Sequence record: KX130865
Length of the DNA: 64,000 nt
Direction: 5' to 3' (one strand)
From: Shigella phage SHSML-52-1
The position numbers and the translations under genes were made by a program. This document shows positions 5,456 to 12,009 of the stretch, piece by piece (the stretch's first letter is position 1; the number at the start of each line of letters is the position of its first letter). The notes under the pieces were generated by a model. It made no database searches. It was given only the letters and a program-made list of their open reading frames with translations, and was not told where the DNA came from.

Positions 5456-6091
5456 ATGAAAACTACACCAATCACTATCGCTATTGACGCAATCGTAAAA
5501 CAAGCTTCATCTCTTGCCACTATGGCTAAAGTAATTAGTCAAAACCCTGCCCGATATAATGCTATTCTTGAAACTCTTCGTCGCCCTGGACTGAGTAATT
5601 ATGAAAGCCGAGTAATTATTACAGGTGTTGGTAAGAATGCTAATATTGCAACTAAAGCTTCTGAGACATTTGCTTCACTAGGTATTCCTAGCATGTATTT
5701 GAACACTGGGCATTATTCTCATGGTGACGCAGGATTTATTGCACCTAATGATGTATTAGTTCACATCAGTCGTTCCGGTAAGACTGAAGAAATGATAGGT
5801 GTTGCTAAACATCTTCGTATGATTCGTCCTCAGGTTAAACAGATTCTGTTACATTGTAACCCTGACATTCCACAAGAATACGAAGCTCTTTTTGATTATA
5901 CGTTCTGTACCGGTATCGCGGTAGAAGTTGACGAGAACTCTTTAGCTCCGACCATGTCTACTACATTGTTGTTAGCGCTTATCGATACGTTCGCTATCAA
6001 CCTTTCATCTGAACGTGGATTTACCTCTAATGATTTCCTTAAGTTCCATCCAGGCGGTGCACTAGGTGCCATGTTACGAGGCGAACAATGA
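5456..6091 (+). CDS. SIS-domain sugar-phosphate isomerase (arabinose-5-phosphate isomerase / KpsF-GutQ-like)
   Basis: 211 aa; SIS signatures VGKNANIA, SRSGKTEE and C-terminal FHPGGALG typical of KdsD/GutQ-type isomerases. Confidence 0.7.
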   Translation: MKTTPITIAIDAIVKQASSLATMAKVISQNPARYNAILETLRRPGLSNYESRVIITGVGKNANIATKASETFASLGIPSMYLNTGHYSHGDAGFIAPNDVLVHISRSGKTEEMIGVAKHLRMIRPQVKQILLHCNPDIPQEYEALFDYTFCTGIAVEVDENSLAPTMSTTLLLALIDTFAINLSSERGFTSNDFLKFHPGGALGAMLRGEQ

Positions 6092-6272: not shown

Positions 6273-7961
6273 ATGAAAAAAGCTGTTATTCTTGGTGCTG
6301 GATTAGCAACTCGTTTATATCCAATTACTCACCATATTCCTAAGGTGCTTGTTAACTATAAACAAGACACTATTCTGAGCAATTTGTATACAATTTATTC
6401 TGACCTTGGCGCAGATGAAATTATTGTAGTAGTTCATTCAAAATTTGCTGAAACTGTTCGAGCTTATTGTGAGCAAGAAGGGTTCAATGTGACTATTCGT
6501 ACAGTTGATGAAGCGTATGGTTCTGCTTATGCTCTTGCTAAATTACACAAAGATTTAGACGGCCATAACGTAATTGTTAACTGGTGTGATATTATTCCTG
6601 ATTTTGGTTCATGGTCTTGGAATGTTAACGCAATCTATGTTAAGGGTGATGAATGTCGATATAATTTCGATGGTGAAAATATCACTAACGTAGGTTCAAC
6701 TGGTGGTAATGTTGTAGGAATTTATCAGTTCAAAGACTGGGAATTCTATATGGGTTCTACTGATGAGGAAATTCATGAATACTGCAAAGGACGTGATTTC
6801 GTAGAATTCCTTTACAGCGGCGCATTCAATAAATCAGAGCTTATGAATATCATCGACCTTGGTGATATGCCTAAACTTGAAAAAGCTCATGAAGTTCGTG
6901 AACTTAATCGTAGTTTTAATGCAGTTGAAATTGGTGAAGAAACGGTAACAAAGATTGCTTTAACAGAACAGGGCGTTGCACTTCAAAAAGATGAAGTCAA
7001 TTGGTATAAGAAAGTTAAATCAGATTCAGTTCCACGGATTGTAAGTTATCATCCTGGCGGCCACTTTATTATGGAACGCATTAAAGGTAAGCCGGCATTT
7101 GAATATATTAAATCCAAATCAAGTCTTGCTCGTCCACAAATTGTTGATGCAATTTTAGATGCACTGAAATTCAGCACAGACACTTATTTTGTAAGTCCTG
7201 AAACTGTTCGCCGTGATTTCACTAAAGAGTTCTATACGAAAGTTATTGATCGTTGTGAAAGCATTCAGCCATTGATTGATTCATTTGGTAAAATCACACA
7301 CGTGAACTACACTAAGATTGGACGTCTGAAGCCAATGTTGAAACAAGCTTTAGAACATCTTATTCGTTATCATAACCGTTCTCAGGGACAGTACTCTGTT
7401 ATTCACGGCGACCCAAACTTCAGTAATACTATGATTACTGATAACGGCGAAGTCAAGTTTATCGACCCTCGTGGATATTTTGGTGAAACCAAGATTTACG
7501 GGCCAAAATTGTACGATGAAGCTAAAGTGCTTTATGCTGTTTCAGGTTATGATGAATTCAATGCTAATCCGACCTGGGGACAGTTTACTATTGATGAAAC
7601 AACTTGTAATGTGACTATTAACATCAATCCATTAGTTTACAAATATGGAAAGATGAGTTCGTTTAACGAGTATCATCATTTGGCTGTAGCAATTATCTGG
7701 ATTGCATTAGGTGGTTATTTCAAGAATAATCCACTTAAAGCGGTAGCCGCCTATTATAAAGGTATGGAACTTCTGACTAAGCAATTACGTAACATGGGCC
7801 GTGTACTTCAAGATGGCTCTATTAGTTATGACGTAGCAGAACCTGTAACGGCTACTCTGATTACAAAAAATCCTGGTAAATGGGTGCTAACTGATAAAGA
7901 AACTGGTGTTTCCTATCGTCCAATCGGCGGCGATATCACTCATCAATGGGAACGAATCTAA
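6273..7961 (+). CDS. bifunctional sugar-1-phosphate nucleotidyltransferase (N-terminal, RmlA-like) / APH-type kinase (C-terminal)
   Basis: 562 aa; N-terminus ILGAGLATRLYPIT resembles RmlA GGSGTRLYPLT; C-terminal HGDPNFSNTMI…FIDPRGYFG resembles the HGDxxxxN / D-x-x-G motifs of APH/choline-kinase-fold kinases. Confidence 0.7.
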   Translation: MKKAVILGAGLATRLYPITHHIPKVLVNYKQDTILSNLYTIYSDLGADEIIVVVHSKFAETVRAYCEQEGFNVTIRTVDEAYGSAYALAKLHKDLDGHNVIVNWCDIIPDFGSWSWNVNAIYVKGDECRYNFDGENITNVGSTGGNVVGIYQFKDWEFYMGSTDEEIHEYCKGRDFVEFLYSGAFNKSELMNIIDLGDMPKLEKAHEVRELNRSFNAVEIGEETVTKIALTEQGVALQKDEVNWYKKVKSDSVPRIVSYHPGGHFIMERIKGKPAFEYIKSKSSLARPQIVDAILDALKFSTDTYFVSPETVRRDFTKEFYTKVIDRCESIQPLIDSFGKITHVNYTKIGRLKPMLKQALEHLIRYHNRSQGQYSVIHGDPNFSNTMITDNGEVKFIDPRGYFGETKIYGPKLYDEAKVLYAVSGYDEFNANPTWGQFTIDETTCNVTININPLVYKYGKMSSFNEYHHLAVAIIWIALGGYFKNNPLKAVAAYYKGMELLTKQLRNMGRVLQDGSISYDVAEPVTATLITKNPGKWVLTDKETGVSYRPIGGDITHQWERI

Positions 7962-8347
7962 TGCACCGTGTAGAAAACATGCTTAATCTTTGTTTTGATG
8001 TCGATGATTGTATAACAGAGTGGAATAACAATCGTGATTACGTGAACTTCAAACCAGATGTCGAAATGGTGTCTGCCATTAATGCCCTGTACGATGCAGG
8101 GCATACCATAACGCTTTACACTGCCCGTGGTATGAAGTCGGTAGGTCCTGGTCGTATAGCAATTGACATTCTCCCAAGTCTGATTCAGAACTTGGAAAAC
8201 ATTGGTTTGAAGTACCATAATTTGCTAACACATAAACCAGTATATGATTGGATTATCGACGACAAAGCTATGCGTCCTGACGAATTCAAAGCTCTTATGA
8301 ATAAAGGCGAATTCGAAACATTTAAATCATATAAACCAAATCTATAA
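7961..8347 (+). CDS. HAD-superfamily phosphatase-like protein
   Basis: N-terminal FDVDDCIT (DxDx[T/V] HAD motif I); track start 7946 but ATG 7961 abuts the upstream stop. Confidence 0.55.
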   Translation: MHRVENMLNLCFDVDDCITEWNNNRDYVNFKPDVEMVSAINALYDAGHTITLYTARGMKSVGPGRIAIDILPSLIQNLENIGLKYHNLLTHKPVYDWIIDDKAMRPDEFKALMNKGEFETFKSYKPNL

Positions 8348-8404
8348 TAATTTAAGTAAGACCTGCAAAAACCATCGCATCAATTAACGCGAGATGCAAA
8401 AAAA

Positions 8405-9565
8405 ATGAATACTTTTAAAATCGGAACGAATTTTGATTTAGCTCTTCTTGATAAAATCGTAGAGCTCAATAAAACCTATCCTAATAGCTTGATAAACGAA
8501 GTATATGGCTCTACAAGAGAAATGGCTTTTGTAGCAGCCAGACCTGATTTTAGGCTTCCTGACGTTGACAAAAAGATGTTAGAAGACTACGTTAAACGTT
8601 GTAACGAATTAGGTATTTGCTTTAACTATACACTCAACACGATAAATCCTGGTTCAAAAAGAGAACTAGTTGAGTGGAAGAAGAAAGCTATTCAGGATTA
8701 TGTTCAGTATCTTTGGTCAATAGGCGTATGGCGTATTACTATCGCTAACCCTGTTGTTATGGAAATTGTTCGTGAAGTCAATAAAGATATTGAGATTGAA
8801 GTTTCAACAATTCTACATGTTGATGCTGTAACTCAAATCAAATACTTACATGACCAATATAACATCAAAAAGGTCTGTTGCGGAATTCATAAGAACCGTT
8901 CAGTTTCTTTCCTGAAGCGTGCAGCAGAGTTTTGCAATAAGAACAATATAATATTTGAAGTTCTTGTAAATGAGTTCTGTTCTAATGCTGGTAAAGGGTA
9001 TACAACACATTGTAGTTATCGTGACTCTTGCTATATTTTCCATAGTACTGATGTTACCGCTGATGATGCTAAATCCTTAAATGGATATCCTATGCAGCAC
9101 TGTATTAAAGCTCGTGATACAGACCCATTTAACTGGTTGAGAACTCGTTTTGTTCGTCCTCAAGATTTGAAACTTTATAATGATATTGGTATCACTCAAT
9201 TCAAAGTTTCAGGACGTACAGGTAGCACAGACTACATTTTGAAAGTTCTTGAAGCATACGCTTCTGAAAAGTTTGAAGGTAATTTGTTAGAACTGTGGAA
9301 GCCTTTAGAGACTATTTTCACTCTTGAAAATGAGACTGAGTTTTCACATACAGTAAATATTGAAACCTCTTTGTTAGATGGCTTTTTAGAAAAAAGGTGG
9401 TTCAGACATCCAGATTTTGATTGTGCTAATGAAATCTGTGGGTCAACGTGTACATATTGTGAAAGGTATTATAAACGTCAATTATCTAAAAACGGGTTAG
9501 CAGAAAACTCCATATCTATTATTGATATAACTAACTCTGATGACGCTTTGAGGTACCCGGAATGA
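8405..9565 (+). CDS. hypothetical Cys-rich protein in the modification block
   Basis: 386 aa; Cys clusters (CSNAGKGYTTHCSYRDSC; CANEICGSTCTYC) suggest metal or Fe-S binding; U32-like fold considered but signature not matched. Confidence 0.6.
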   Translation: MNTFKIGTNFDLALLDKIVELNKTYPNSLINEVYGSTREMAFVAARPDFRLPDVDKKMLEDYVKRCNELGICFNYTLNTINPGSKRELVEWKKKAIQDYVQYLWSIGVWRITIANPVVMEIVREVNKDIEIEVSTILHVDAVTQIKYLHDQYNIKKVCCGIHKNRSVSFLKRAAEFCNKNNIIFEVLVNEFCSNAGKGYTTHCSYRDSCYIFHSTDVTADDAKSLNGYPMQHCIKARDTDPFNWLRTRFVRPQDLKLYNDIGITQFKVSGRTGSTDYILKVLEAYASEKFEGNLLELWKPLETIFTLENETEFSHTVNIETSLLDGFLEKRWFRHPDFDCANEICGSTCTYCERYYKRQLSKNGLAENSISIIDITNSDDALRYPE

Positions 9566-9801
9566 TTTCTAGAAAAAGTTTTAATTATAAACTTAACGAA
9601 GAGATTTTGACTATGAAACTGAACACTAACGAACAAATTCTTAAAAAGGCCCTTATGGGCCTGTTTGAAACCAAAGCGGCTAAAGTGATTAAAGAACCTG
9701 TTCAATTGGAATACTACACTGATGCATTCCTTCATAGTGTTCTTGGAAGTATAGATTCTGAAGCTTTACGTTATATCAACATTGTCAAGAAATTCAAATA
9801 A
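9562..9801 (+). CDS. hypothetical protein (79 aa)
   Basis: Track ORF overlapping the upstream stop; contains a terminator-like hairpin at 9648-9661, so coding status is uncertain. Confidence 0.3.
   Translation: MISRKSFNYKLNEEILTMKLNTNEQILKKALMGLFETKAAKVIKEPVQLEYYTDAFLHSVLGSIDSEALRYINIVKKFK
9648..9661 (+). terminator. hairpin GGCCC-TTAT-GGGCC followed by TGTTTG
   Basis: Perfect 5-bp GC stem inside ORF 9562-9801; possible attenuator after the modification-gene block. Confidence 0.3.
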
Positions 9802-9824
9802 GCTTTACGAATTGAGTATATAAT
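9800..9824 (+). promoter_or_regulatory. putative middle promoter for gene 42 (AAGCTTTA 9800-9807, -10 TATAAT 9819-9824)
   Basis: MotA-box-like element plus consensus -10 about 20 nt upstream of the 9844 ATG. Confidence 0.4.
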
Positions 9825-9843
9825 AAATTGTATTGAGGTAAAC

Positions 9844-10560
9844 ATGGGAAAACATAACACAATGAAATATATCAAAGCCGCAGATTTTCAAGCCGCATTT
9901 AAAGCAGTCAATCGTGAAATTTTAGAAAACCCTGAATTCGTAACTGATTCTCGTATTGGACGTTGTAATGAAATTGGGTCTATGACAGTAGTTGTTGACA
10001 CTCCATCATCATTCAAAATGACCGACCCACGTATTAACCGCATCTCTTATGAATACGCCGAAGACTTCTGGAAGTTTATGATTTCTGGTGGTACCAACGC
10101 AGAAGAAGCGTTTAAGGCATATCCTAATGTCGCTAAATTTATTTCTAAACCAAAATCAGATGTTTTGCCGGCGAACTTCAACACTTTCTATGGTCCTCGC
10201 ATTGCGGCCCAATTACCAACTCTTCTAAAAGAACTTAAAGAAAAACCTAACTCTCGAAGAGTTGTGTTCCAAATTCTAGAAAGTTCTGATCAGGCTTTGC
10301 TTGATTCGGACGAAACACTTGAATATCCATGTACTGACTCAGTGACTTATTATATTCGTGATGGTAAGCTTTATACCCACTGCCATATGCGTTCTCAGAA
10401 CTGTGCTGTTGTTATGCAGTTGGATTTTTATCTCCAAGGAAAATTACTTCATTATATCGCTAACGAATGCGGTGTAGAAGTTGGTGATTATACTCATACC
10501 ATGGTAAGTGCCCATGTGTTTGAACGTGATTTTGATTATGTTAAAGGATTCCTTGACTAA
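9844..10560 (+). CDS. 42: dCMP hydroxymethylase gp42 (thymidylate-synthase fold)
   Basis: 238 aa; PNSRRVVF and CTDSVTYYIRDGKLYTHCHMRSQN match the TS/dCMP-HMase active-site region (catalytic Cys). Confidence 0.85.
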   Translation: MGKHNTMKYIKAADFQAAFKAVNREILENPEFVTDSRIGRCNEIGSMTVVVDTPSSFKMTDPRINRISYEYAEDFWKFMISGGTNAEEAFKAYPNVAKFISKPKSDVLPANFNTFYGPRIAAQLPTLLKELKEKPNSRRVVFQILESSDQALLDSDETLEYPCTDSVTYYIRDGKLYTHCHMRSQNCAVVMQLDFYLQGKLLHYIANECGVEVGDYTHTMVSAHVFERDFDYVKGFLD

Positions 10561-11460: not shown

Positions 11461-12009
11461 ATGGCTAAAATTATTTTAGTAGATGGCCCGGATAATGCCG
11501 GTAAAACAACTTTCATTAATGACATAATGGAAATTAGTGAAAGATATGTAAAGATTGATTTCCCTAAACGAACAGTTGATGGACGTTTCGATGTTAAGTC
11601 TCGAAATGAAGTTGGTTGTTTCGAAACGATGTTGAATTATTTAGACCCTACTAAGATTTATCTGTTAGACCGTGGATATATTAGTAACTGGGTTTATGGA
11701 CGTATTCGACAAGATGCGGACTCTGTTCTTGATGTTTATGAGCAGGATTATGTTCGTCTTTGTCAAAACCATGATGTGTTCACAATTATTTTAACACGTA
11801 ACGAAATGACTGAAAGTTTTGAAGACGACCTTATTACTTTGTCTTCATTCGGTTTTAATACAGTCATTTCACATTTTGAAGAGTTTGCAATTCATAACAA
11901 AATCCAAACATATCAATTACTTAATCATGATGGTGCTAACAAAGTTATAGGATTTAATGCAAGCGAACGTAATAATTTGATTACAGAAATCATTAAATGG
12001 GCTCGTTAA
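11461..12009 (+). CDS. P-loop kinase (thymidylate/deoxynucleoside-kinase-like)
   Basis: 182 aa; Walker A VDGPDNAGKTT and LLDRGY motif resembling the TMK/dNK DRx motif. Confidence 0.55.
   Translation: MAKIILVDGPDNAGKTTFINDIMEISERYVKIDFPKRTVDGRFDVKSRNEVGCFETMLNYLDPTKIYLLDRGYISNWVYGRIRQDADSVLDVYEQDYVRLCQNHDVFTIILTRNEMTESFEDDLITLSSFGFNTVISHFEEFAIHNKIQTYQLLNHDGANKVIGFNASERNNLITEIIKWAR

Follow-up and report, generated by a model that had tools for sequence, protein, structure and literature searches.

A U32-family protein of Shigella phage SHSML-52-1 as a candidate oxygen-independent, prephenate-dependent pyrimidine hydroxylase in DNA modification

The Shigella phage SHSML-52-1 (record KX130865), of which a stretch of 64,000 nucleotides was analysed (the window), is a Mosigvirus, i.e., an RB69-like T-even phage, and the region discussed here is 99.8% identical to that of Escherichia phage p000v. 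An open reading frame (ORF) that starts with ATG at position 8405 and ends at 9565 on the + strand encodes a cysteine-rich protein of 386 amino acids, the ortholog of RB69 gp50. It can be stated with high confidence that this protein belongs to the U32 family and that its gene is part of the phage module for 5-hydroxycytosine (5hoC). The explanation that fits the available evidence best, and that we favour, if only somewhat, is that the protein acts as an anaerobic, prephenate-dependent dCMP C5-hydroxylase.

We infer the substrate, the product, the use of prephenate and the anaerobic role of the protein as follows. One or more Fe-S clusters would oxidise the substrate, a pyrimidine deoxynucleotide (dCMP in an RB69-like phage), while prephenate would be decarboxylated to phenylpyruvate and would supply the hydroxyl group to C5, giving 5-hydroxy-dCMP. 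The product would be phosphorylated and then incorporated by the phage polymerase, and the incorporated base would be arabinosylated on DNA by the neighbouring glycosyltransferase. The U32 protein would in this way be the anaerobic counterpart of the O2- and flavin-dependent 5-hydroxy-dCMP synthase, a thymidylate-synthase homolog (ThyA-like) encoded two genes downstream; such a pairing would mirror the TrhP/TrhO and UbiUV/UbiIHF pairs of the host. An enteric phage that destroys dCTP could then still make its replacement base in the anoxic gut, where an O2-dependent hydroxylase alone would strand it.

A wider proposal consists of two parts, which we consider jointly and to which we give an even chance. 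A dedicated phage U32 subfamily may hydroxylate free pyrimidine deoxynucleotides without O2, the prephenate often being supplied by a phage chorismate mutase or DAHP synthase; and this subfamily may serve as the anaerobic twin of the 5-hydroxy-dCMP (5hodCMP) synthase in RB69-like phages and as the sole route to O-glycosylated 5-hydroxypyrimidine DNA in a large set of phages, all of them uncultivated and many binned with strict anaerobes. The gene and its U32 fold are already known through annotations and through Table 1 of PMC13326640. New, in that they were not found in the searchable literature, are the reading of the protein as a prephenate-dependent, O2-independent deoxynucleotide hydroxylase, its recurrent association with phage chorismate mutase or DAHP synthase, and the exchange of the ThyA-like enzyme for it in uncultivated phages; in full-text searches, no paper was found that connects phage U32 proteins or phage chorismate mutases with DNA modification.

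Family assignment, fold and cysteine motifs

The U32 gene is intact at full length in 220 of the 220 phage records that contain it. Compared with homologs of other T4-like genera (approx. 75% nucleotide identity, dS saturated), the ratio of nonsynonymous to synonymous substitution rates (dN/dS) is 0.03-0.07. The ORF is a real gene under strong purifying selection and not a chance ORF.

A previous reading of this DNA from its letters alone (the sequence-only reading) had considered a U32-like Fe-S barrel, set it aside because the signature was not convincingly matched, and matched the protein to no family that could be named. The lack of a family is mistaken, as Pfam Peptidase_U32 (PF01136) is matched above its gathering cut-off (42.2 bits versus 22.4, E 7.3e-11), with residues 94-286 covering profile positions 2-192 of 233. 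PF01136 is also carried by all of the homologs listed, and PHROGs places the protein in phrog_5757, annotated as 'peptidase'. The AlphaFold2 model built on the alignment (pLDDT 91.2, pTM 0.90) is a predicted TIM barrel that matches the only solved U32 structure, Mk0906 of Methanopyrus kandleri (PDB 5d88), a link that runs through the predicted structure only; a sequence search of the PDB with the single U32 protein gave no match. The closest fold matches to the model are U32, CutC, pyruvate kinase and MTHFR barrels. Mk0906, itself named a U32 'peptidase', differs from the phage protein (11-14% identity, 247 residues) and has no counterpart of its last 100 residues with the C-terminal Cys motif.

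When 1.84 billion cluster representatives were searched exhaustively, 1187 relatives were obtained at E <= 1e-3, of which 111 reached E <= 1e-30; nearly all of the 150 relatives listed are 340-420 amino acids long. Judged by these sequences, the phage protein and its relatives form a distinct single-domain U32 subfamily.

The features of the gene are as follows.
8405-9565, + strand: U32-family Fe-S TIM-barrel protein, RB69 gp50 ortholog; proposed O2-independent, prephenate-dependent pyrimidine C5-hydroxylase
8978-9103, + strand: core U32 motif, residues 192-233 (E190-F-C192 ... C203-x5-C209 ... C233), candidate [4Fe-4S] ligands; invariant in the alignment and matched by hhalign to RlhA
9422-9460, + strand: C-terminal CX4CX3CX2C motif (C340, C345, C349, C352), candidate second metal or Fe-S site, invariant in 38 homologs

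The protein contains 13 cysteines, at positions 66, 72, 158, 159, 177, 192, 203, 209, 233, 340, 345, 349 and 352. In an alignment of 38 sequences reaching down to 47% identity, C158, C177, C192, C203, C209, C233 and C340-x4-C345-x3-C349-x2-C352 are invariant, so that the two cysteine clusters pointed out by the sequence-only reading are real. Ten invariant cysteines are thus available, four of which may be the ligands of a putative [4Fe-4S] cluster. The C-terminal four-Cys motif might hold a second cluster for electron transfer to some acceptor, which is pure conjecture.

The U32 signature, which we take to be the PROSITE-type pattern E-x-F-x2-G-[SA]-[LIVM]-C-x4-G-x-C-x-[LIVM]-S, is not literally present: the region reads E190-F-C-S-N-A-G-K-G-Y-T-T-H-C203-S-Y-R-D-S-C209-Y-I-F-H-S, with a 5-residue insertion and CX5C rather than CX6C. 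In this respect the earlier caution about the strict signature was justified; giving up the U32 assignment was not, since this assignment is supported by the Pfam profile, by the predicted fold and by the way in which the Glu and Cys residues essential to RlhA function align. In the profile comparison with the four E. coli U32 paralogs, RlhA is the best match (hhalign E 2.8e-5, 195 columns), and E190, C203 and C209 of the phage protein fall on E161, C169 and C176 of RlhA. Because the Glu and both Cys still align in this way, the motif is modified and not absent.

Two other enzymatic classes were weighed against the U32 assignment. A radical SAM (S-adenosylmethionine) enzyme was suggested by C345-x3-C349-x2-C352 and was rejected: there is no Radical_SAM Pfam match, the motif (residues 340-352) lies in the tail after the barrel, and no radical-SAM structure ranks above generic TIM barrels in the fold comparison. 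Most GenBank records, following the family name, annotate the protein as a peptidase or collagenase. This name goes back to a small number of collagenolytic proteins whose catalytic mechanism is not known (PMC5727448). The predicted structure is a TIM barrel in which no peptidase fold or peptidase catalytic residues were found; its invariant residues are mostly the Cys, Arg and Asn of a cofactor or ligand site, with Cys clusters typical of Fe-S sites, and the gene stands in a context of nucleotide metabolism. Hence, a peptidase function deserves almost no credence.

Comparison with characterized U32 proteins

The U32 proteins RlhA, TrhP and UbiU/UbiV support the hydroxylation of aromatic carbons without O2, for which Fe-S clusters and prephenate are required, in the formation of 5-hydroxycytidine in rRNA, 5-hydroxyuridine (ho5U) in tRNA and ubiquinone, respectively (PMC5727448, PMC6599085, PMC10990095). 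For ubiquinone hydroxylation, 18O labelling identified prephenate as the oxygen donor (PMC10990095).

RlhA (YdcP) shares the U32 core with the phage protein, and the chemistry proposed for the latter is the same, namely prephenate- and Fe-S-dependent C5-hydroxylation of cytosine (PMC5727448). In RlhA, C169 and C176 are essential for the formation of 5-hydroxycytidine (ho5C2501), and the E161A variant retains trace activity (PMC5727448). The two proteins differ in that RlhA is 653 amino acids long, contains a DUF3656 region and the C-terminal cysteines Cys580 and Cys611, and acts on an rRNA precursor, whereas the phage protein is a 386-residue single domain with CX5C, the 5-residue insertion, its own C-terminal CX4CX3CX2C and a proposed deoxynucleotide substrate. 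It cannot be placed in the RlhA subfamily, as no Pfam domain besides PF01136 was detected in its 386 residues and the alignment stops at RlhA residue 258.

TrhP (YegQ) is likewise a U32 protein of prephenate-dependent pyrimidine C5 hydroxylation, and in the same organism it has an unrelated O2-dependent partner, TrhO (PMC6599085); this is the logic proposed for the phage U32 protein and the ThyA-like synthase. The hhalign match to TrhP is weak (E 0.003) and does not extend beyond the N-terminal half. TrhP acts on tRNA and possesses a U32 C-terminal domain, and TrhO is a rhodanese-type protein, whereas the aerobic partner in the phage is a flavin-bound thymidylate-synthase homolog. UbiU and UbiV, which act together with UbiT, are U32 proteins with a four-Cys [4Fe-4S] site that back up the flavin- and O2-dependent UbiI/H/F (PMC10990095). 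In contrast to the phage protein, they work as a heterodimer, and their substrate is a polyprenyl-phenol lipid, on which they act together with a carrier protein. Their similarity to the phage U32 protein is very weak (hhalign E 0.012), the NCBIfam UbiU model scores 18.5 bits against a cut-off of 440, and the gene cluster in the window contains neither a second U32 gene nor an SCP2-type gene.

T4-like phages encode tRNAs and other RNA-modifying functions. Together with the kinship to TrhP and RlhA, this could suggest that the phage protein modifies host or phage RNA (ho5U in tRNA or ho5C in rRNA) and so tunes translation during infection. However, the synteny with DNA-modification genes is kept across unrelated phage lineages, the domains that RlhA and TrhP have in addition are missing from the phage protein, and E. 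coli already possesses both enzymes, all of which makes an RNA target very improbable.

DNA modification in RB69-like phages and the gene cluster

The DNA of RB69 contains mono- and poly-arabinosylated 5-hydroxycytosine and not arabinosyl-hydroxymethylcytosine (Lee et al., NAR 2026, PMC13326640). RB69 gp48, a thymidylate-synthase homolog, makes 5-hydroxy-dCMP; it co-purifies with an FMN-like flavin, and the oxygen of its product derives from 18O2 (PMC13326640). In aerobic E. coli, gp48 and a kinase are enough for the formation of 5-hydroxydeoxycytidine (PMC13326640). RB69-type phages also remove dCTP by means of the dCTPase RB69p028 (PMC13326640, Table 1). From the work of He et al., as it is cited in PMC13326640, the gp48 homolog of phage HY126 was reconstituted as an O2-dependent dCMP 5-hydroxylase, and HY126 AfhE and AfhF (homologs of gp52:53 and gp51) make UDP-arabinose from arabinose-5-phosphate (Ara-5-P). 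The U32 ortholog RB69p050 appears in Table 1 of PMC13326640 only, as 'Sugar or heterocycle reductase' with a match to 5d88, and is undiscussed; that paper's text contains none of the words U32, peptidase, prephenate or hydroxylase.

In the window, the order of genes up to the U32 ORF is DNA polymerase, arabinose-5-phosphate isomerase, sugar kinase/nucleotidyltransferase and HAD phosphatase; after it come a 79-amino-acid ORF (orf79), the thymidylate-synthase-like gene, the gene for a 299-amino-acid protein (GT299), a thymidylate-kinase-like gene and uvsX. The features of the cluster are as follows.
5456-6091, + strand: arabinose-5-phosphate isomerase, SIS domain, RB69 gp55 ortholog (Pfam SIS; NCBIfam KpsF/GutQ, KdsD; PHROG 5670)
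6273-7961, + strand: bifunctional sugar kinase/nucleotidyltransferase, RB69 gp52:53 / AfhE-like (Pfam NTP_transferase and kinase-like matches; role from PMC13326640)
7946-8347, + strand: HAD-type phosphatase, RB69 gp51 / AfhF-like, converting Araf-1,5-P2 to Araf-1-P (NCBIfam TIGR01689, E 2e-13; role from PMC13326640)
9562-9801, + strand: orf79, small, probably helical protein, translationally coupled to the U32 gene (PHROG 8601)
9844-10560, + strand: thymidylate-synthase-like 5-hydroxy-dCMP synthase, RB69 gp48 ortholog, O2- and flavin-dependent 5hoC route (Pfam Thymidylat_synt, 57 bits; function from PMC13326640)
10560-11459, + strand: GT299, homolog of RB69 gp46:47, putative first DNA arabinosyltransferase (PHROG 3891; PMC13326640 Table 1)
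11461-12009, + strand: thymidylate-kinase-like nucleotide kinase, RB69 gp45 ortholog (PHROG 761; PMC13326640 Table 1)

The sequence-only reading had placed the protein in a modification block between the phosphatase and a 'gene 42'. The placement downstream of the former and upstream of the latter is correct, apart from the intervening orf79, which went unmentioned, and that reading was right to see a Cys-rich enzyme, probably redox-active, as a member of the DNA-modification block. The label 'gene 42' cannot be kept, because this neighbour is no dCMP hydroxymethylase: its product is 97.5% identical to the HY126 ortholog, which the cited account of He et al. describes as an O2-dependent dCMP 5-hydroxylase. 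In GenBank, its homologs are called dCMP hydroxymethylase, deoxycytidylate 5-hydroxymethyltransferase or thymidylate synthase. The product proposed for the U32 protein, 5-hydroxy-dCMP, is also that of the RB69 gp48 and HY126 synthases, and both enzymes share the gene cluster and the downstream kinase and glycosyltransferase; they differ in fold and cofactor, the synthase using flavin and drawing its oxygen from O2, as indicated by 18O2 labelling (PMC13326640).

Given that the gene is embedded between sugar-pathway and base-pathway genes, it might instead encode a sugar-tailoring or 'heterocycle reductase' enzyme of the nucleoside diphosphate (NDP)-arabinose branch, the label found in the GenBank BASEL records (in Bas47, 'putative enzyme involved in UDP-arabinose biosynthesis') as well as in Table 1 of PMC13326640. 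NTPk and API homologs also co-occur with it in some loci of phages outside the T4-like group (non-T4 loci, see below). However, if AfhE and AfhF prepare UDP-arabinose from Ara-5-P, as the cited account of He et al. has it, no U32 step is needed. Moreover, Acinetobacter phages with the isomerase, the kinase/uridylyltransferase and the phosphatase make the modification without U32, and phage JS98 has the latter two enzymes without U32. Conversely, U32 occurs with a UDP-galactopyranose mutase (GLF) pathway or with no sugar pathway, still accompanied by glycosyltransferase and thymidylate-kinase-like (Tmk-like) homologs (L013, L014, L037 and L040), and nothing in sugar chemistry would account for its association with chorismate mutase and DAHP synthase. 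A role in the sugar branch is therefore distinctly unlikely. The idea of a sugar isomerase or mutase, put forward in the sequence-only reading, is not supported, on similar grounds: there are phages without U32 whose three sugar-pathway genes and arabinosylated base are the same, and in unrelated phages U32 tracks base-modification genes and chorismate mutase and not any single sugar pathway.

U32 genes in loci without a ThyA-like gene

To the U32 genes of T4-like phages can be added 43 non-T4 loci, 28 from IMG/VR, 5 metagenomic and 10 from genomes or metagenome-assembled genomes (MAGs), whose neighbourhoods were inspected over 6-10 kb on each side of the U32 gene. The U32 gene stands beside a ThyA-like gene in 15 of 15 T4-like loci, whereas a ThyA-like gene is absent from 42 of the 43 non-T4 loci. 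The sole exception, in L031, resembles canonical thymidylate synthase, scoring 244 bits against Pfam Thymidylat_synt, as compared with 57 bits for the 9844-10560 product. Dereplication of the viral and metagenomic loci gave 26, with 136 neighbours that had no other assignment; a Pfam scan of these neighbours revealed no further member of Thymidylat_synt. A neighbour of approx. 270 amino acids in six non-T4 loci, considered as a cryptic ThyA-like enzyme, is by PHROG match a gp32-like single-stranded DNA-binding protein. It has a Cys/His motif and a long acidic tail and lies ahead of a MazG-Tmk-glycosyltransferase-U32 series (L014 5408-6232; homologs in L032, L036, L040, L044 and L055).

A GT299 homolog lies within 6 kb of U32 in 26 of the 43 non-T4 loci, and Tmk-like kinase, MazG/DCD/dCMP-deaminase, dCTPase-type and NDP-sugar genes are often nearby. 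The arrangement dNTPase-kinase-glycosyltransferase-X is the standard layout of pre-replicative pyrimidine hypermodification, and X is U32 where T-even phages have the ThyA homolog. Thus, in non-T4 phages, U32 appears to replace the ThyA-like hydroxylase. Every U32 match in INPHARED is at least 80% identical to the query, and no cultured non-T4 phage with U32 was found there.

These loci bear on two further readings of the protein. First, the U32 protein adjoins the ThyA-like gene in all T4-like loci, Fe-S proteins are often electron shuttles, and gp48 needs reduced flavin (PMC13326640); hence, U32 could be a redox or electron-transfer partner of the 5hodCMP synthase, for example in flavin reduction. 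This reading is improbable, as gp48 is active without U32 both in E. coli and in vitro (PMC13326640), nearly all of the non-T4 U32 loci have no ThyA-like partner, and Lazarus, DLP3 and the Dhakaviruses carry the ThyA-like gene without U32. Second, the same chemistry could be directed at cytosine already in DNA, i.e., U32 could act after replication at the level of the polymer. The nucleic-acid U32 enzymes known so far all act on polymers (PMC5727448, PMC6599085), and one of them, RlhA, gives a better profile match to the phage protein than the other E. coli paralogs do. On the other hand, the phage protein is a bare barrel of 386 amino acids without DUF3656, U32_C or any other nucleic-acid-binding extension, and the clustering with MazG/DCD-type dNTPases, dCMP deaminase and Tmk-like kinase in non-T4 loci is a hallmark of pre-replicative mononucleotide pathways. 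Furthermore, because T4-like phages destroy dCTP (RB69p028; PMC13326640, Table 1), there would be little cytosine in their DNA to hydroxylate. A polymer-level activity is thus unlikely, although it is the alternative to which we would give most weight.

Chorismate mutase and DAHP synthase beside U32

An AroQ chorismate mutase, the enzyme that forms prephenate, is encoded by the ORF overlapping the stop codon of U32 in Serratia phage LC53 and Enterobacter phage Entb_45 (Pfam CM_2, E 1.7e-11 and 2.4e-10, respectively, above the cut-off). In this phage family, the equivalents of the catalytic residues Arg11, Arg28, Lys39, Ser84 and Gln88 are invariant and that of Glu52 is nearly so. A chorismate mutase occupies the U32-adjacent slot in 51 of 50,697 phage records and, among the matches listed, lies within the U32/ThyA-like cluster every time; it directly follows U32 in 13 of 15 T4-like IMG/VR loci. 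AroQ-type genes between U32 and the ThyA-like gene were seen in L005 (7158-7502), L006 (7158-7397) and L017-L030 (T4-like). The hosts of T4-like phages bearing the gene are Serratia, Enterobacter, Klebsiella, Yersinia, Proteus, Edwardsiella, Erwinia, Pectobacterium, Providencia, Morganella and Shewanella. In T4-like phages, the gene is mostly annotated as 'hypothetical protein', and no paper discussing it was found.

A similar association is found in unrelated uncultivated phages, in which fusions of DAHP synthase and chorismate mutase flank U32 (L039, L041-L043, L051 and L065). These phage-encoded enzymes stand at the entry and at a branch point of the shikimate pathway. The fusion genes lie at the following positions.
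L039, 8411-9433: DAHP synthase-chorismate mutase fusion
L042, 7302-8357: DAHP synthase-chorismate mutase fusion
L043, 8332-9387: DAHP synthase-chorismate mutase fusion
L051, 11079-12197: DAHP synthase-chorismate mutase fusion
L065, 6931-7959: DAHP synthase-chorismate mutase fusion

Stand-alone chorismate mutases flank U32 in a jumbo-phage group (L045, L047, L049, L050, L052, L054, L066 and L067), and DAHP synthase without a chorismate mutase domain lies beside U32 in L012, L029 and L071. In total, a chorismate mutase or DAHP synthase is encoded within 6 kb of U32 in 18 of the 43 non-T4 loci. The DAHP_synth_1 neighbours were also considered as KDO-8-P synthases that would use the product of the isomerase; the score as DAHP synthase is much the higher (237 bits against 63 bits), and several of the proteins are fused to chorismate mutase. 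Since the association recurs in unrelated phages, enzymes leading to prephenate have been recruited beside U32 several times.

In the phage described here, orf79 takes the slot that chorismate mutase holds in most related phages; it belongs to a different family. Its ATG overlaps the stop codon of the U32 gene in the sequence ATGA (9562-9565). As the syntenic ORF in LC53 and Entb_45 is a chorismate mutase, orf79 was at first taken for one as well. This was rejected: no CM_2 match was found at E 10, the catalytic Arg/Lys pattern is absent, the hhalign comparison with the phage chorismate mutase family gives a probability of 0.07%, and Yersinia and Pectobacterium phages carry orf79 (PHROG 8601) alongside a true chorismate mutase. 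No Pfam match of any kind was obtained for orf79 even at E 10. The protein is probably all-helical. Because it is truncated or frameshifted in several Mosigviruses (HY126, PNJ-6, JS09, AV116, AV112 and SSE1), it is probably dispensable.

Distribution of U32 and oxygen availability

The cultured phages that carry U32 infect facultative anaerobes, namely Enterobacterales and Shewanella. The U32 relatives from cellular genomes are binned mostly with strict anaerobes (Romboutsia, Clostridium, Erysipelotrichales, Gastranaerophilaceae and Phocaeicola). The ThyA-like gene is present in 57 Acinetobacter phage records, whereas no Acinetobacter phage is found among the U32 names listed (unlisted names account for at most 3 records each). 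In Acinetobacter phage Lazarus, the HAD phosphatase gene directly abuts the ThyA-like gene without U32, and the DLP3 cluster is without U32 as well (PMC13326640). Acinetobacter hosts of U32-less phages are strictly aerobic, which is consistent with an anaerobic role of U32. Pseudomonas phage PspYZU05 also has no U32 at the cluster. The same holds for the Dhakaviruses of E. coli (e.g., JS98), an exception to the pattern of hosts, in which the ThyA-like gene, the kinase/nucleotidyltransferase and the phosphatase are present.

Weight of the proposed function and its implications

Several points weigh against an anaerobic, prephenate-dependent dCMP hydroxylase. By tblastn, no chorismate mutase is encoded anywhere in the 64-kb window, and a phage without its own enzyme would therefore depend on host PheA/TyrA. 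Dhakaviruses infect E. coli without U32, which shows that a phage of an enteric host can do without the gene. Host assignments from MAGs cannot be relied upon where phage-like contigs are concerned. The preference for free dCMP over DNA as the substrate is drawn from context alone, and the replacement of the ThyA-like enzyme by U32 is deduced from gene content within +/-6-10 kb only. In print, the RB69 ortholog carries a single label, 'sugar or heterocycle reductase' (PMC13326640, Table 1). In vitro reconstitution of hydroxylase activity has yet to be achieved for any U32 protein (PMC10990095). No biochemical or genetic test of the U32 gene was found in the literature, of which not all relevant papers were covered, and a phage Tn-seq preprint contains no data on it.

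If the proposed function is correct, it would account for the ability of RB69-type phages to replicate in the anoxic gut despite the removal of dCTP, their dependence on 5-hydroxycytosine and a known hydroxylase that needs O2. To the RNA and quinone substrates of prephenate-dependent hydroxylation it would add DNA precursors, and it would bring viruses into the reach of this chemistry and give a reason for the presence of shikimate-pathway genes in phages. The protein would be the first U32 enzyme with a small soluble substrate, so that prephenate-dependent hydroxylation could be assayed directly; a monomeric dCMP enzyme of 386 amino acids would be tractable for the first in vitro reconstitution of U32 hydroxylase chemistry, which is still missing (PMC10990095). 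In addition, hydroxypyrimidine-based DNA hypermodification is predicted in many uncultivated phages without a thymidylate-synthase homolog, where current prediction rules would miss it. For phage therapy and engineering, it may matter that the U32 gene could be dispensable in aerated laboratory culture and important in vivo.

Other features of the U32 loci

Upstream of the U32 gene, the 57-nt gap after the HAD phosphatase gene holds a sigma-70-like promoter match (TTTAAA-16-TATAAT, 10/12, positions 8321-8348, + strand). Since such matches in the region do not exceed the shuffled expectation, it is regarded as a consensus match only.

In the uncultivated phages L013 and L037, the U32-glycosyltransferase-Tmk module is accompanied by UDP-galactopyranose mutase (GLF) and TAGT-like glycosyltransferases, and the arabinose genes are replaced. 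This gene set suggests galactofuranosylated hydroxypyrimidines, as in the RL38J1 case described in PMC13326640. In L038, an IS605-type OrfB/TnpB gene (8689-9951) with a Cas12f-like TNB domain lies directly upstream of U32 and downstream of the sugar kinase/nucleotidyltransferase gene.

A cassette of four genes, encoding GP88 (PF17338), a SAM methyltransferase of approx. 414 amino acids, a protein of approx. 265 amino acids and U32, recurs in L003 (7135-11098), L063, L068, L069 and L070 (3044-7137, a Phocaeicola faecalis isolate), i.e., in very different phyla, including an archaeal MAG. By analogy with the conversion of ho5U to 5-methoxyuridine (mo5U) by TrhP and TrmR, the combination of U32 with a methyltransferase may represent a pathway to a 5-methoxypyrimidine nucleotide or DNA. 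In L003 and L063, the cassette is followed by genes for a 5'-nucleotidase, a PnuC-like transporter, a deoxynucleoside kinase, a radical SAM/SPASM protein, a second, divergent U32 protein and a nucleoside deoxyribosyltransferase.

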